The position numbers and the translations under genes were made by a program. Below, in pieces: positions 3,425-58,165 of a stretch of 64,000 bases of DNA. Positions within the stretch are counted from its first letter, which is position 1. Every line of letters starts with the position of its first letter. Origin of the DNA: Thermodesulfobacteriota bacterium (GTDB taxonomy: Bacteria > Desulfobacterota > QYQD01); contig JBFMFO010000003.1 in the NCBI GenBank assembly GCA_040754095.1, positions 57,401 through 121,400 of the forward strand, written 5' to 3'. The notes beneath the pieces are model-generated. The model was given only the letters and a program-made list of their open reading frames with translations, was not told the DNA's origin and ran no database searches.

Positions 3425-3530
3425 AACAAGGGAAGCTGTCAGCGGTCAGCAATCAGCCTTCAGTTTAATTTAATATGTTGTTTATCTTATTTTTTGGCTG
3501 ACAGATGAAAGCTGATAGCTGAGAGCTTTT
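3425..3530. repeat. Mosaic intergenic repeat, cagcggtcagc / gctgatagctga family, with a ttcggaaactatagtttccgaa hairpin
   Basis: Sequence motifs are shared with 10690-10850, 14640-14790, 19840-19990, 38530-38690 and 51720-51830. Confidence 0.6.
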
Positions 3531-3586
3531 ATTCGGAAACTATAGTTTCCGAATAAATAGTAATATAGTTTCTTAATTGTGCGATG

Positions 3587-4765
3587 TCAAGCCGACGGCT
3601 GATGGCCGGCAGCTTCTGTAAAAGGCAGGTAAACGGTAAAGGTTGAACCTGCTCCCGGCGCGCTTTCAAACTCTATGAAACCCCCCATCAGCTCAACAAA
3701 TTTTTTAGATATGGCAAGCCCGAGGCCTGAGCCTTGTTCTCCGCCTTCTTTCCTGGTTATTTTAGGAAACGGGGTAAATATCTTATCGCTGTCTCCCGGC
3801 TTTATGCCCTGACCGGTATCGGTTATGGCTATGGCCACCAAATCCCCCCTTATCCCCCCTTTAGTAAAGGGGGGTGAGGGGGGATTTGGGTCTTGTTGCA
3901 GCCGGCAATTTACGCTGATTTGTCCGCCCGCCTGGCTAAACTTTATGGCATTATCAAGGAGGTTTCGCAGAATAGTCTGCAGGCCTCTTTTATCTGCGGT
4001 GATACGGTCTGATTCCGGCGGCGTTTCCCGCCGGAAGGAGATACGCTTATTGTAGGCCATATTTTGCAGATCCATCCAGACCGTATCGATCAGGCCGGTT
4101 AGAGAGAGGGGTTCCGGACGGGGCGTAACACCCCCGGTCTCCAGCCTGGCTAGGAGCGAGATGTCATTAACCAGGGTCAGCAGTTGTCGCCCGTTCCGGT
4201 CGATCACGGAGAGAAATTCGCGCTGGTTGCTGTTTAACGGCCCGTAGTATTCATTGGCCAGCAGCTCAGCAAAACCGAGGATGCCGTTAAGGGGGCTGCG
4301 CAGTTCGTGGGAAGTTTTTGAAAGAAAGGCAAACTTTTGCTGCTCTGCCCGTTGCAACTCATGGCCGGCCCGACGCAACTCGTCATACAGCGACTTTATG
4401 CGCAACATAACCTTGACCCGGGTTGCCAAAATCAGGTTGTCAACCGGTTGCACTATATAATCGTCGGCCCCCATGTCCATGCCCTTTATCTTGGACTTTA
4501 AGTCGTCATAAGTGGCAGTCAGGAATACGATGGGGATATGCCTCATCTCAGGATCGCCCTTGAGTATCCGGCAGACCTCGAATCCATCCATAATCGGCAT
4601 CTGGATATCAAGGAGCACCACATCCGGGTGTTTTTCGCGGGCCAGCCGCACGGCCTCCAGGCCGTCCCCGGCGGGAATTATTGCACAGTCAATATTAGCG
4701 CGTAATATCTCACTCACCATAAAGCGGACATTGGGATTATCATCGGCGAGCAGTATGGCGTACAT
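3587..4765 (-). CDS. Hybrid response regulator-histidine kinase (N-terminal REC, HisKA, HATPase_c)
   Basis: REC domain (ILLADDNP ... VVLLDIQMPIMDGFEV). H-box SHELRSPLNGILGFAELL, N-box LLDNAIKFS, G1 DTGQGI, G2 GSGLGLAI. A 54-nt palindromic insertion lies between the N and G1 boxes. Confidence 0.85.
   Translation of the reverse strand: MYAILLADDNPNVRFMVSEILRANIDCAIIPAGDGLEAVRLAREKHPDVVLLDIQMPIMDGFEVCRILKGDPEMRHIPIVFLTATYDDLKSKIKGMDMGADDYIVQPVDNLILATRVKVMLRIKSLYDELRRAGHELQRAEQQKFAFLSKTSHELRSPLNGILGFAELLANEYYGPLNSNQREFLSVIDRNGRQLLTLVNDISLLARLETGGVTPRPEPLSLTGLIDTVWMDLQNMAYNKRISFRRETPPESDRITADKRGLQTILRNLLDNAIKFSQAGGQISVNCRLQQDPNPPSPPFTKGGIRGDLVAIAITDTGQGIKPGDSDKIFTPFPKITRKEGGEQGSGLGLAISKKFVELMGGFIEFESAPGAGSTFTVYLPFTEAAGHQPSA
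3838..3892. repeat. G5/C5-run palindromic element inserted in-frame in the HK gene
   Basis: The sequence aaatcccccttatcccccctttagtaaaggggggtgaggggggatttgg is a near-perfect hairpin. It encodes DPNPPSPPFTKGGIRGDL within the kinase ATP-lid region. Intergenic copies lie at 5868-5935, 6121-6210 and 6287-6336. Confidence 0.75.
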
Positions 4766-4993
4766 GTAATCTCCTTTCAGATCAGCTTTCAGCCTTCAGC
4801 TTTGGGCTTTGAGCTTATTTGCTTTTCCCCAGCCATTCTTCCACCTTTTTAAGAACTTCGGCCGGTGGAACAGGTTTGGCTACGCGCCGGAAGCCGCGAG
4901 AATCATATTCGGTCTTCTGCCGGACGTTGACAAGGAATTCCTGCAAGTAGCCTTTTCCTTTATCCACTTTCTTCGACTATCAGCTTTTAACGA

Positions 4994-5560
4994 TCATGAG
5001 AACTCAATGATTTTTTTGATTAGAGCGGTCCAATCCAGGGGCTTGGCAAAGAAGGCGTCTGCGCCGCATTTCAGTGCTTTTTTTCTGTATCCTTCCTCTG
5101 CATGGGCTGTAGTAACTATTACTTTGATATGTTTGGTACAATCATTGGATTTAATCCTGGTACAGACTTCAAACCCATCCATCTTAGGCATCATCAGGTC
5201 CAGGATCACGATTTTTGGTTTGACCTCGCCAATTTTATAAATGGCCTCAAATCCGTCGCCGGCGGTATGAACCTGGTATCTATCTTTGGCTGCCAGGAAG
5301 GCAGCCTCAAAGAGTTTAAGGTCATAAGGATTATCATCAACCACCAGGATGTGATTTTTACCGGGATTAACGGCCTCCGGCGGAACTGCATCTTTGCCGG
5401 CCAGGAAATTAAGCAACTCCCCTCTTCTTATCTTACGATGGCCGCCCGGGGTTACGAAGGCATTGAGGATGCCTTCATCTATCCATCGGGTGATGGTTGT
5501 CCGGGTTACCCCGCAAATCTTGCCAGCTTCTGAGGTTGTAAGGTATTCTGATACATTCAT
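4994..5560 (-). CDS. DNA-binding response regulator (N-terminal MerR/excisionase-type HTH plus REC)
   Basis: HTH LTTSEAGKICGVTRTTITRWIDEGIL. REC domain ILVVDDNPYDL ... IVILDLMMPKMDGFEV ... KPLD. Confidence 0.8.
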   Translation of the reverse strand: MNVSEYLTTSEAGKICGVTRTTITRWIDEGILNAFVTPGGHRKIRRGELLNFLAGKDAVPPEAVNPGKNHILVVDDNPYDLKLFEAAFLAAKDRYQVHTAGDGFEAIYKIGEVKPKIVILDLMMPKMDGFEVCTRIKSNDCTKHIKVIVTTAHAEEGYRKKALKCGADAFFAKPLDWTALIKKIIEFS

Positions 5561-5665
5561 CTGAAGACACCTTTCTCCAGCAGACCGGAAGTCCGTAGTT
5601 TTTCGCTTATATACTACTTTTCGGACATTGTTACAATTAAGTTAACATAATGTTTTGTGCAGCTT

Positions 5666-5735
5666 CGTAGGGTGGGCTAAGCCCACCAAAACTACTACGC
5701 CGCCAATGATGGTGGGCTAAGCCCACCCTACGGCT
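5666..5735. repeat. Paired palindromic repeats GTAGGGTGGGCTAAGCCCACC ... GGTGGGCTAAGCCCACCCTAC
   Basis: Each half is a perfect hairpin. Related copies lie at 6254-6282, 6412-6436 and 24819-24888. Confidence 0.75.
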
Positions 5736-5749
5736 ACGGCACTATAAAT

Positions 5750-5830
5750 CCGAATATCGAAATCCGAAACAAATCCGAAATCAAAATGCTCAAATGACCA
5801 AAACATAATTGTTTGTAACACGTTAGCTGT
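5750..5830. repeat. Solo terminal inverted repeat of the ~300 bp MITE family (aatccgaaa...caaatgaccaaaa)
   Basis: Matches the reverse complement of the 3' terminus of the MITE copies at 16790-17125 and 18750-19085. Confidence 0.6.
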
Positions 5831-5867
5831 TTGAAAAGAGCTGGTCGTCCAGAAAACGGCGCCTCGA

Positions 5868-5935
5868 AAATCCCCCTTAATCCCCCTTTTTCAAAGGGGG
5901 AATGTAGGGGGCCCCCCCTGTCAGCGGTAATCTGA
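5868..5935. repeat. G5/C5-run palindromic element (cccccttaatccccctttttcaaagggggaatgtagggggcccccc)
   Basis: Hairpin-forming. An inverted partner copy lies at 6121-6210, with flanking ctgtcagcggt / accgctgacag. Confidence 0.7.
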
Positions 5936-6120
5936 ATATGCATCAGATCTGGCAACATGAAAATGCCGGTCTTCTTCCCAAAATGCTCAATCAATACTGT
6001 TCTTCTCTTCTTCGTATTCTTGTAAGTATTTGAGTTCACAGGGTTCACATGCACCATGCAAGCATACTCTATGCCACAAAAGTGCTGCATTTTCAAATTG
6101 CCCGTTTTCTTACGTTTTCA

Positions 6121-6210
6121 CGGGACCGCTGACAGGGCCCCCTTTTTCAAAGGGGGGAAATGTTTCTCCTCCCTTTGGAAAAGGGAGGTTGGGAGGGATT
6201 TTAAAATACT
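6121..6210. repeat. G5/C5-run palindromic elements (two adjacent copies)
   Basis: gggccccctttttcaaaggggggaaatg and ctcctccctttggaaaagggaggttgggaggg. Confidence 0.7.
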
Positions 6211-6253
6211 TCTTCAAATAGCTAAGCTGATACAATTGGTTAAAATTTAGCCA

Positions 6254-6336
6254 TGTAGGGTGGGCAAAGCCCACCCTACGGGACTTAAATCCCCCTCACC
6301 CCCCCTTTGGAAAAGGGGGGGTGAGGGGGATTTGGC
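6254..6336. repeat. GTAGGGTGGGCAAAGCCCACCCTAC palindrome followed by a G5/C5 palindrome (aaatccccctcaccccccctttggaaaagggggggtgagggggattt)
   Basis: Both are perfect inverted repeats read directly from the sequence. Confidence 0.8.
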
Positions 6337-6411: not shown

Positions 6412-6436
6412 GGTGGGCAAAGCCCACCCTACGTGA
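6412..6436. repeat. GGTGGGCAAAGCCCACCCTAC palindrome copy
   Basis: Same core as 5666-5735 and 6254-6282. Confidence 0.7.
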
Positions 6437-6626: not shown

Positions 6627-8624
6627 ATGAACCTGTTTAAACGAGAAGAAAACAAGGCAAAGGATTATGAGAGTGAGTTACAGGAGGCCCGGGCGCAGGC
6701 CAGGCGCTGTGAAAGTATCTTATCTGCTATAGCCGCACCCATGTTTGTGACCGATAAAGACCTGGTGATTACCTCTATAAATGACGCCGCGCTGAAGGCC
6801 ATGGGCTACAGTCGGGATGAGGTAGTGGGGAAGATGACCTGTGCCCAGTTTTCCAAGACCCCGCTCTGCGGCACGGCCCAGTGCACGATTAAGAACTGCA
6901 TGCGCACCGGCGACGTAATCAACGGTGAGACGGTGGCCGAGACCAGGGACGGAAGGAAGGTGCCCATCCAGGCGGCCTGTTCGGCCCTCTTTGACGAGCA
7001 GGGAAAGCCCTACGGCGGCATGGAGGTCATCCTAGACCGGACCGAGGCAGTCAAGGCCAAGTGGGAGGTAGATAATATCCTCAAATCCGCCGCCGCGCCC
7101 ATGTTTGTGACCGATAAAGACCTGGTGATCACCTCCATCAATGATGTGGCGTTAAAGGCCATGGGCTACAGTCGGGATGAGGTGGTGGGGAAGATGACCT
7201 GCGCCCAGTTTGCCAGGACTCCCCTCTGCGGCACGGCCCAGTGCACGATAAAGAACTGCATGCGCACCGGCGACGTAATCAACGGTGAGACGGTGGCCGA
7301 GACCAGGGACGGCAGAAAGGTGCCCATCCAGGCGGCCTGTTCGGCCCTCTTTGACGAGCAGGGAAAGCCCTACGGCGGCATGGAGGTCATCATAGACATA
7401 ACAGAGGTCAAACGCCTCCAGAAAGAGGCCGATGAACAACGTGAATACCTGGAAAGACAGGTGGCCATGCTGGTAAAAGAATTACATACCCTGAGCCTCG
7501 GAGACCTGTCGGTAAACATTGTCGCGGAAAGACAGGATGAGATCGCCAGGGTCATAGAAAGTTTAAATAAGGTTATTGAAAGTCTCCGGGAGACCGCCCG
7601 GGTAGCGGAAGCTGTTGCCCGGGGAGACCTGACCGTAGAAATCACACTCAAGTCAGAAAAGGATGTCCTTGGAAATGCCTTTAAGAAAATGATTAACGAC
7701 TTGCGGAATATCGTCGGCAATATAAAAGAGGCGTCCGACAATGTGGCCTCCGGCAGTCAGCAAACCAGCAGTACGGCCGCGCAACTCTCACAGGGTTCTA
7801 CCGAACAGGCGTCCAGTATTGAAGAGGTGTCCAGCTCCATGGAGGAGATGAACAGTACGGTAAATCAGAATGCCGACAATGCCAGGCAGACCACCTCCAT
7901 TGCCGAGAAGGCCGCCGGCAATGCCCAGGAAAGCGGCAAGGCCGTGGCGGAGGCGGTAGGGGCCATGAAACAGATCGCGGAAAAAATATCCATCATTGAA
8001 GAAATCGCCCGCCAGACCAATCTGTTAGCCTTAAATGCGGCCATCGAGGCGGCCCGGGCCGGGGAACATGGGCGGGGGTTTGCGGTGGTGGCGGCCGAGG
8101 TGCGCAAGCTGGCCGAGCGCAGCCAGACCGCAGCCCAGGAGATCGCCAATCTATCGGGGAGCAGTGTTCAGGTGGCCGAACATGCCGGCGCTCTGGTGGC
8201 CGAACTGGTTCCCAATATCCAGAAGACCGCCGAGCTGGTTCAGGAGATAAATGCCTCCAGCACCGAGCAGGCCAGCGGTATCCGGCAGGTGACTCAGTCT
8301 ATTCAACAGCTCGACCAGGTGGTGCAGCAGAATGCCAGCGCTGCCGAAGAGATGTCCGCAACCGCCGAGGAACTTACGTCCCAGGCCGAGCGGCTGCGCG
8401 AGTCCGTTAATTTCTTCAAGCTGGATGACCAGGGTGGTCAGGGGATGAAACAATCGGGAGCCGGGCGTAGTCCCCGTGCCGACATCCCTAAACTGTCTGC
8501 CCACAAACCGGCGCGCCCCGGCGCATCTGCGAGCGGCAGTGTGACTAAGCCGCAGATAACAACCGGGGTTGATATAGTCCTGGGTAAGAATGATATGGAC
8601 GACCGGGAGTTTGAAAGAATTTAA
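6627..8624 (+). CDS. Cytoplasmic methyl-accepting chemotaxis protein with two tandem Cys-rich PAS-like modules, HAMP and MCP signalling domain
   Basis: Strong RBS AGAGGAGG. No TM segments. Two 120-aa repeats each carry [23 protein letters not shown]. The MCP tip motif is [37 protein letters not shown]. The C-terminal tail ends REFERI. Confidence 0.9.
6727..7410 (+). repeat. Tandem direct duplication (two 360-bp copies, about 95% nucleotide identity) inside the MCP gene
   Basis: 6727-7050 versus 7087-7410. The 3' halves are almost base-for-base identical. Confidence 0.85.
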
Positions 8625-19672: not shown

Positions 19673-19839
19673 GGTTTCATCTGCTGATGCAGAATCAAAG
19701 GACGTCATTCCGGCGAAAGCCGGAATCCAGTCTTTTCAAGATGTTCTGGACACCGGCTTTCGCCGGTGTGACGGTGAGGATCAACCGGATTATTCTTAAG
19801 TCAACGACATTGGATGTTCAGGCGGAGATGGTGGGTTAG

Positions 19840-24818: not shown

Positions 24819-24888
24819 CGTAGGGTGGGCTTTGCCCACCATCATTGGCAGCGCAGCGTATTTTCGGTGGGCTGCGCCCACCCTGCAT
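24819..24888. repeat. Paired GTAGGGTGGGC...GCCCACC palindromes (inverted-orientation relative of 5666-5735)
   Basis: cgtagggtgggctttgcccacc ... cggtgggctgcgcccaccctgc. Confidence 0.7.
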
Positions 24889-30048: not shown

Positions 30049-30155
30049 TTAAAATGTCAGTGGTCAGTTGTCAGTAGTCCGTTGCGAATTGGCAGAGGCG
30101 CTACCTCAATCCGAAACCTGCAACGGACCATGGACAACGGTCAACGGACAACTGT

Positions 30156-34837: not shown

Positions 34838-34955
34838 TCACTTGTCACAAAAAAGTCATCGGTCAATAGTCACTTGTCAATGGTAGAAGATATTGATCTC
34901 CCTACTTAACTAATTACCAATGACTATTGACAAATGACTAATGACATTCACTATA
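34838..34955. repeat. TGACTAATGAC / GTCACTTGTCA-family inverted-repeat element
   Basis: gtcacttgtcacaaaaaagtcatcggtcaatagtcacttgtcaatgg ... ccaatgactattgacaaatgactaatgacattcac. Confidence 0.65.
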
Positions 34956-38419: not shown

Positions 38420-38730
38420 ACGATGGGCAACAACCGATCATTAGTCATCGGCCATCGGTTAGTGCTCAACCGGAAATTACCGTTTCCGGCTTACGGTCGG
38501 CCTAAGGCCGGTCGTGCCACGCGCCGATTCGCCGGGGCGAGCTTCACGCTTTCAGCGGTCAGCTGTCAGCATGTTTGTTATCCGTTAACCGTTGTCCGAC
38601 ATTTTCTTTCGGTTAACGGTCAACAGTGAACGGTGGGCCGGCTTTATGCTGAAGGCTGATAGCTGAATGCTGATCGCTTTTACCAGTGACAAATGACTAT
38701 TGACTAATGACATTCACTATACTTTGTTTG
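38420..38730. repeat. Composite mosaic repeat block. The 38420-38560 portion is the reverse complement of 51780-51900, and 38560-38680 relates to 19840-19990.
   Basis: Shared strings: atcattagtcatcggccatcggttag, ccggaaattaccgtttccgg, cagcggtcagctgtcagcatgtttgttatccgttaaccgttgtccgac, accagtgacaaatgactattgactaatgac. Confidence 0.75.
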
Positions 38731-58059: not shown

Positions 58060-58165
58060 ACGTCACTCGTCACTGGTCATTAGTCATTGGTTAAGTTGGG
58101 AGAAAGATAGACCCCTTTTACCAGTGACAAATGACTCTTGACTAATGACTAATGACTTCTACTTT
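58060..58165. repeat. TGACTAATGACCAGTGAC-family inverted-repeat element
   Basis: cgtcactcgtcactggtcattagtcattgg ... ccagtgacaaatgactcttgactaatgactaatgac. Confidence 0.7.

Follow-up and report, generated by a model that had tools for sequence, protein, structure and literature searches.

A hybrid response-regulator/histidine kinase encoded in the stretch of DNA analyzed here (64 kb, hereafter the window) carries, within its ATP-binding domain, a segment translated from a palindromic repeat. Taken together, our results make it very probable that a non-coding hairpin repeat inserted into the kinase gene at an exposed turn, was tolerated there as a loop, and subsequently decayed, expanded and recombined among lineages.

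The hairpin lies where an earlier note on this DNA had located it (3838-3892), with some of the C and G runs miscounted in the sequence given there. The near-perfect palindrome, CCAAATCCCCCCTTATCCCCCCTTT AGT AAAGGGGGGTGAGGGGGGATTTGG, occupies 3838-3891, and its arms (3838-3861 and 3866-3889, inverted repeats I8/I9) are complementary at 88%. Folding of 3838-3891 as DNA gave -25.5 kcal/mol (z -6.3), a value that none of 200 shuffled sequences equaled; folded as mRNA, the same hairpin reaches -47.4 kcal/mol. The 18 codons spanning it (3839-3892, minus strand, read from 3892 to 3839) translate as DPNPPSPPFTKGGIRGDL. In the orientation of the gene, stop codons interrupt two of the three frames, and the open one is the frame in use. 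Because C-runs specify proline and G-runs glycine, every frame of the hairpin in both orientations encodes PP..(K/R)G..G peptides, which bears out the idea that PPF.KGG-type peptides would arise from either orientation. A search for intrinsic terminators (a G+C-rich stem followed by a T run) left the kinase copy unflagged on both strands and flagged only the copy at 6138. Rfam 15 contained no match at the gathering score, the sub-threshold matches being to generic hairpins (miRNA precursors).

The kinase hairpin belongs to a repeat family. Its core, CCCCCTTTnnnAAAGGGGG, occurs at five sites in the window, all within 3855-6319, against a chance expectation of 0.07. These five sites agree with the family copies previously proposed at 5868-5935, 6121-6210 and 6287-6336, the second of which turned out to consist of two hairpins. 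Three intergenic copies, none of them assigned to a strand, could be delimited: one at 5867-5911 (AAAATCCCCCTTAATCCCCCTTTTTCAAAGGGGGAATGTAGGGGG; recovered by the core search and as inverted repeat I14), a double-hairpin copy at 6136-6203 (CCCCCTTTTTCAAAGGGGGG ... CTCCCTTTGGAAAAGGGAG ... GGGAGGGATTTT), and one at 6287-6333 with perfect 22-nt arms (AAATCCCCCTCACCCCCCCTTT / AAAGGGGGGGTGAGGGGGATTT; I6, 100% complementary), the one among these copies that is closest to the kinase copy. A composite of the 6136-6203 type is also found directly after the kinase stop codon in two related loci (L004 and L005). In all these copies, complementary spacers of 3-5 nt separate the inner hairpin, CCCCCCTTT-loop-AAAGGGGGG, from the outer arms, which are AAATCCCCC on one side and GGGGGATTT on the other. 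The kinase copy has the same organization, with CCCCCTTT-loop-AAAGGGGG as the inner hairpin between the arms AAATCCCCC and GGGGGATTT, and it has intergenic counterparts.

The intergenic region that holds these copies (5.57-6.62 kb, ~1,066 nt) consists mostly of repeats, and its counterpart in another locus (L006) is ~300 nt long. Within it, CCCCCCCTGTCAGCGG (5912-5935) and CCGCTGACAGGGCCCCC (6125-6141) form inverted repeats around a ~190-nt segment between two hairpin copies, and a 120-aa ORF at 5734-6096 is probably spurious. A second family, at 5666-5732, 6246-6288, 6412-6432 and 24822-24884, comprises GTAG-tagged palindromes, (C)GTAGGGTGGGC-AAA/TAA-GCCCACC(CTACG), that are REP-like and partly arranged as inverted doublets.

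The host protein (3587-4765, minus strand, 392 aa) is 100% identical to an NCBI MAG protein of a Thermodesulfobacteriota bacterium. Its REC (residues 4-116), HisKA (146-211) and HATPase_c (258-383) domains all score above the curated Pfam cut-offs (E-values 5.8e-27, 6.3e-23 and 1.8e-18). The catalytic landmarks H153, N272, D316-G318-G320 of the G1 box and G345-G349 of the G2 box are invariant columns in the alignment. Translation and domain matches agree with the earlier description of an in-frame insert that follows the N box (N272) and precedes the G1 box; the 18 codons spanning the hairpin end eight residues ahead of D316. The spacing between N272 and D316 is 44 residues, as had been estimated, and the spacing in orthologues without the insert is 29 rather than the supposed ~27.

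We next considered where the segment lies in the fold. In an AlphaFold2 model built from a 69-sequence alignment (mean pLDDT 85.9), the insert falls in the turn 291-308 that joins β-strands 282-290 and 309-316 of the ATP-binding domain. Residues 294-305 have pLDDT below 50, a low-confidence turn predicted to be disordered. Since strand 309-316 leads straight into the G1 box, the insert would sit at the far end of the β-hairpin, distant from the nucleotide pocket, as judged from the topology of the model and from the HK853-type structures that the kinase matches.

A strong promoter-like site, TTGACA-17-TATATT, lies at 3590-3562 on the minus strand ahead of a DnaJ-like gene, and it is followed closely downstream by a perfect 15+15 palindrome (3528-3557, TTTATTCGGAAACTA/TAGTTTCCGAATAAA), probably an operator. 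L004 contains a related sequence, CCGGAAACTACCGTTTCCGAA; the exact pattern occurs in none of the fetched loci.

Comparison of orthologous sites was the most informative. Thirteen close homologues of the kinase were found, and DNA was fetched for nine of them; apart from five isolate genome records, all sequences in this study come from metagenome assemblies. The gene order HK-DnaJ-LemA-TPM downstream is kept in the fetched loci whose contigs are long enough, indicating that the homologues are true orthologues. In seven syntenic orthologues (79-90% identity) the segment is missing, and the protein runs QQDQ(S)VAIAI. Six of them (P0003, P0005, P0007, P0010, P0011 and P0012) have the protein sequence QQDQSVAIAI, encoded in the three for which DNA was fetched (P0003, P0010 and P0011) by GAC CAA AGT GTG GCC. 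The seventh, P0004, is one codon shorter (QQDQVAIAI; GAC CAA GTG GCC). Relative to this last type of empty site, GACCAA/GTGGCC, the extra DNA in the window is exactly a 48-nt block (3839-3886, minus strand, AATCCCCCCTCACCCCCCTTTACTAAAGGGGGGATAAGGGGGGATTTG), the palindrome itself reaching 3838-3889. Thus, the insert is indeed in frame, and the figure of exactly 18 added codons has to be corrected to a net gain of 15 codons (with QS replaced) or of 16 relative to P0004. No direct repeat flanks the kinase insert (GACCAA ... GTGGCC), i.e. there is no target-site duplication. A clean junction can be rebuilt only from the P0004 allele CAAGTG and not from the commonest empty allele, CAAAGTGTG.

The filled sites are of three types. 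An ortholog from an independent assembly (P0002, GCA_040755415.1) carries the same insert as the window, identical at 50 of 51 nt. P0006 has a long composite of the same family, 162 nt at the same junctions. In P0008 and P0009 the copy has decayed to GATTCCACCCCTCACCTCGATGAAAAAGGGGGCCGGGGGAATTTT, with the right arm kept, the left arm mutated and the frame intact. The outgroup, P0013, has a short loop unrelated in both protein and DNA. A metagenome scan with the kinase protein added no new alleles; among the matches listed, there were only relatives at 28-38% identity that share generic kinase motifs.

These comparisons bear directly on whether the 18 residues could be an ancestral loop of the subfamily, or the hairpin a misassembly or a pseudogene lesion. 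Apart from the general unreliability of MAG assemblies at repeats, nothing speaks for such an explanation, and we consider it very improbable. Seven orthologues do without the segment and the alignment contradicts ancestry; the inserted DNA is itself a member of a repeat family; the same insert is present in an independent assembly; and the frame and all catalytic boxes are intact in a gene with a low dN/dS. Rather, the segment is lineage-specific and repeat-derived, because orthologues lack it and its DNA matches the intergenic family arm for arm. This was the outcome of aligning the orthologues as the earlier note had advised.

The kinase gene is not decaying. Between the window kinase and P0002, both of which carry the insert, dN/dS is 0.19, indicative of purifying selection. 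We also asked whether the insert might be retained for a function, either as an RNA hairpin or Pro-Pro pause that tunes translation of the kinase or by giving the ATP-binding domain a new docking loop. The mRNA hairpin (-47 kcal/mol) is very stable and, together with two Pro-Pro pairs, could slow translation; the peptide is the same in the window and P0002, with one synonymous change, and the decayed copies remain in frame. However, close relatives manage without the insert, the predicted loop is disordered, and the occurrence of the same element in unrelated proteins speaks against a specific role. Nor is conservation significantly above the local background: the identity of the insert between the window and P0002 stands out when the divergence of the whole gene is the reference (P = 0.008), yet does not do so when the local 3′ divergence is used (P = 0.11), and the notion of an unusually conserved insert was dropped for this reason. 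Retention for function seems improbable, and we favor tolerance of a loop.

How far does the family extend beyond the kinase? A scan for a 24-base pattern, with one genome per species, detected at least 120 stretches, compared with ~0.1 chance matches estimated under uniform base composition. Bacteria of well over ten phyla have the family, and viral contigs carry it as well. The first 80 of the at least 120 loci include representatives of Desulfobacterota, Nitrospirota, Omnitrophota, Patescibacteria, Chloroflexota, Ignavibacteria, Bacteroidota, Acidobacteriota, Myxococcota, Methylomirabilota, Cyanobacteria, and Beta- and Gammaproteobacteria. Isolate genome records among these loci are those of Iodobacter arcticus, Pseudoxanthomonas sp. 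z9, Geomesophilobacter sediminis, Algoriphagus aquimarinus and Chromatium okenii. The same architecture was seen in 171 copies from other genomes. The ends of the element, formed by AAATCCCCC, are sharp; at the left boundary, A occupies position -1 in 89% of the 171 copies, and the sequence farther out is random. In proteobacterial genomes copies are often inverted doublets 30-100 nt apart. The pattern also occurs in viral contigs (IMG/VR; L211-L290, e.g. IMGVR_UViG_3300035670_001258), again in at least 120 stretches, and one viral contig of 23.6 kb contains nine hairpin copies. Phages may ferry the family between hosts, or some of the viral contigs may be host DNA.

The kinase is not the only protein that contains the element. 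Of 164 sites, 21 lie inside open frames that run for at least 80 residues on both sides, and Pfam domains were present in nine of ten element-bearing ORFs tested. Hosts confirmed in this way are a CbiG-methylase fusion, a radical SAM protein, a GT4 glycosyltransferase, RecJ (within the DHH domain), a GH3 protein, a hybrid kinase, TonB, a TIR/SEFIR protein and an AAA protein. In a word-indexed protein search with a 55-aa query, in which three candidates were scored, the sole match was a MoeA fragment carrying the composite peptide. HMMER comparison of a 30-aa stretch that includes the insert with 1.84 billion representative proteins gave five matches, all of them spurious ORFs across repeat arrays, the query being too short to survey hosts. 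As a side observation, four database "proteins" (P0121 and P0123-P0125) are wholly translated arrays of the hairpin and of other families (VIPAQAGIQ-type and SPLWKRGAGGD-type), i.e. spurious gene calls.

RecJ provides a second case in which a loop can be followed across orthologues. In the RecJ at L059:6188-7984 and in 120 Nitrospirota orthologues (P0126-P0245), one loop of the DHH domain is hypervariable: many orthologues have NPPSPPF.KGG-type peptides, others a short loop, and some have EVRSQN, DTGCRIQDKKDESCI or PSRGEGKGGG, which we read as translations of other repeat families. Loop peptides such as SVISQES and AVSSQN resemble translations of low-complexity GTCAG(C/T)-type repeats, e.g. 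TGTCAGCGGTCAGCAATCAGCCTTCAG, that lie beside many genes of the window, often as inverted pairs (2328-2398, 3437-3475, 4776-4810, 30055-30150, 34854-34939, 38576-38625 and 58062-58135).

A further case is located on the contig of P0002 itself (L003, JBFMAZ010000049.1). Upstream of the kinase, a large PAS/GAF sensor kinase contains two in-frame blocks of ~93 and ~110 residues (L003:1090-1350 and L003:3095-3450) made of PPLEKG-type repeats, the first of which interrupts the GAF region. At the DNA level the blocks are tandem arrays of a 30-nt hairpin unit, with 5.5 and 8.6 copies, and the first array is bounded in sequence by the outer arms of the family. Three orthologues (L004, L005 and L009) lack the arrays. 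Duplication within a coding sequence of another kind is seen in the chemoreceptor gene of the window (6627-8624), where a 300-nt PAS-like segment is repeated in tandem (6732-7031 and 7092-7391; 94% identical, 360-nt spacing).

Based on this distribution, we tentatively suggest, as a possibility that we hold to be somewhat doubtful, that the AAATCCCCC...GGGGGATTT hairpin represents one undescribed mobile superfamily, spread over well over ten phyla and phage genomes. It might be a general source of loop insertions in proteins and of tandem arrays with in-frame 30-nt units, by way of the Pro and Gly residues encoded in every frame, with a preference for loops such as the kinase turn and the RecJ DHH loop.

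We then returned to the history of the kinase site. Recombination within the gene has shuffled alleles with and without the insert. The 5′ 900 nt of P0006 (composite) match those of P0010 (empty) at 100% identity, and the two differ only in the insert and in a diverged patch of ~100 nt downstream; between P0008 and P0011, identity is 97-100% in the 5′ part of the gene and falls to 75-89% in its 3′ part. Moreover, in trees of the region around and downstream of the insert, sequences cluster by insert type (the window with P0002, P0008 with P0009). In the tree of the whole protein, filled and empty alleles are scattered because of this recombination. Many gains and losses, as that tree would imply, had been considered and were rejected once intragenic recombination was found.

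Two histories can accommodate the alleles. In one, a single ancient insertion took place in the ancestor of P0001-P0012, followed by decay in place (P0008/P0009), expansion (P0006) and precise deletion giving the empty alleles, with recombination spreading both states. A single old insertion that later decayed, expanded and was lost is favored by the junction ATTTG/GTGGC, which all filled alleles share; the three filled types have this right junction and the left codon in common. In addition, P0004 (GACCAA/GTGGCC) is exactly the filled allele minus the element, the decayed copies speak for long residence, and recombination is demonstrated. On the other hand, precise deletion does not explain the extra AGT of the commonest empty allele, the copy of the window and P0002 is still an 88% palindrome where P0008/P0009 have lost the left arm, and the loop, ACT in the window, is flipped to AGT in P0006. 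The complete scenario stands at a little under an even chance.

Alternatively, the turn may be an insertion hot spot that was hit separately two or three times by family members, accounting for the decayed, simple and composite types. The inserts are structurally different in these three types, the outgroup P0013 is empty, and the Nitrospirota RecJ loop likewise holds several different repeat families across orthologues. Furthermore, the composite type recurs as a unit at L003:1090 and L003:3095, so that P0006 probably received a ready-made long element; this recurrence and the flipped loop between the window and P0006 are what leave room for repeated hits. Against this, the nucleotide-identical junctions would demand a very specific target, yet the flanks of the 171 copies show no conserved target motif. 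Repeated hits are a possible history, though we would not expect it to be the true one.

Whichever history applies, the overall course of events can be pictured as follows. A short hairpin repeat, non-coding and otherwise intergenic, would have entered the kinase gene at the codons of a solvent-exposed β-hairpin turn in the ATP-binding domain. The copy would have survived because its length is a multiple of three, because the frame used is the only stop-free one in that orientation, and because Pro-Pro...Gly-Gly makes a flexible loop that spares the fold. As the kinase stays under purifying selection, the repeat would now be ordinary coding sequence for an enlarged and presumably functionally neutral loop. 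In some lineages the palindrome has already decayed, in others a longer composite occupies the site, and homologous recombination in the gene carries both allele states, filled and empty, from one lineage to another.

The element may have moved by a hairpin or single-strand based route, transposase-like or by replication slippage, without duplicating its target. Both the hairpin nature of the element and the missing target duplication would fit replication slippage or a single-strand route of the HUH type. Our searches revealed no Y1-like ORF, as judged by the Y1-transposase motif, in the window or in 120 related loci. Transposase families were absent from the 25 most frequent of 92 Pfam families among the window genes, the most frequent representing core chromosomal functions (ATP synthase, MreB, RodA and chemotaxis). 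They were likewise absent from the 25 most frequent of 192 Pfam families in 130 element-adjacent ORFs, where no family was recurrent. Since no mobilizing gene was found in the window, the 120 loci or the neighbors of the element, the case for mobility is made by presence/absence and copy number. Consequently, of the proposal that a mobile palindrome had been absorbed into a protein loop, the loop is corroborated by the modeled turn 291-308 and by dN/dS, and "mobile" is best read as probable, with neither a mobilizing enzyme nor a target duplication detected.

In-frame palindromic repeats in functional genes are already known, and the kinase insertion is not new as a phenomenon. They are established for the Rickettsia palindromic elements (RPEs; PMC10969869), which are described as ~100-150 bp long, reported in Rickettsia and ending in a CGTC tag (Ogata et al. 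2000, as summarized in PMC3733652 and PMC10969869). The likeness is close: a palindromic family is found both between genes and in frame in unrelated, apparently functional genes, where the added peptide fits the fold, and the kinase element, too, is inserted in frame. Length and tag set it apart from RPEs, as it is a 48-nt block with the end A-AAT-CCCCC. The simple form, 48 nt long, combines an AAAT tail with G5/C5 runs; the element is found in many phyla as well as in viral contigs, and it can expand in frame as 30-nt tandem units.

Most REPs of the GTAG/CGTC super-families are extragenic, and a minority is contained entirely in ORFs for known proteins (Di Nocera et al. 2013; PMC3733652); in several species, intragenic REP clusters encode 43-82 residues, for which the authors suggest placement in loops or linkers (PMC3733652). 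The kinase family resembles them in being made of short stem-loop repeats that are mostly extragenic and in some cases inside ORFs for known proteins. In contrast to REPs, which are imperfect palindromes of 20-40 bp with a GTAG or CGTC tetranucleotide at one end, it has neither tag, the sequence beyond position -1 being random, and no RAYT or TIRYT gene was found near its hairpins in the window, the 120 loci or the element neighbors. The arm GGGGTGAG fits the GGGGWSAS motif of repeats that flank TIRYT tyrosine-transposase genes (PMC3733652), which we take as a lead only. The window itself includes, at 19703-19773, a CGTC-tagged palindrome pair, CGTCATTCCGGCGAAAGCCGGAATCCAG / CTGGACACCGGCTTTCGCCGGTGTGACG, that resembles CGTC-class REPs (PMC3733652).

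Similarities to other systems are partial as well. REPINs are described as lineage-specific families inherited vertically with a single-copy RAYT (Bertels and Rainey 2011; PMC3116915), a Y1 (HUH) gene that has the repeats on its flanks. The kinase family shares with them the hairpins, the inverted doublets 30-100 nt apart in proteobacteria and the lack of target duplication, but it is common to many phyla and no link to RAYT was seen in the loci searched. MITEs combine terminal inverted repeats with a target-site duplication and have a parent IS element; the hairpin has inverted arms, but no duplication flanks the insert and no parent IS is known. The enterobacterial MITE-like ERIC and RU elements (Delihas 2007; PMC2759123) and the PARCELs of Mollicutes (PMC2996958) are small open-frame repeats that join host proteins. 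Compared with the hairpin, these are either longer elements bounded by terminal inverted repeats or coding repeats found in surface proteins, and both sequence and host range differ. No description of the hairpin family was found in the open-access literature searched, and the family is apparently undescribed. Less to be expected than the kinase insertion were the breadth of the family and its tandem expansion in frame.

For mobile DNA, the results raise the question of what moves a 48-nt hairpin without target duplication. They also draw attention to a short hairpin family that is met again and again in distant phyla and in viral contigs and that inflates MAG gene calls. For annotation, they mean that a PP..KGG segment in a protein from a sediment or groundwater MAG should be taken for a repeat-derived loop and not for a conserved motif. 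In a sister genome, the repeats have added up to ~110 residues to one kinase. The kinase site studied here, at which filled, empty, expanded and decayed alleles can all be compared, represents a clean natural example of how proteins gain loops from selfish or structural DNA.
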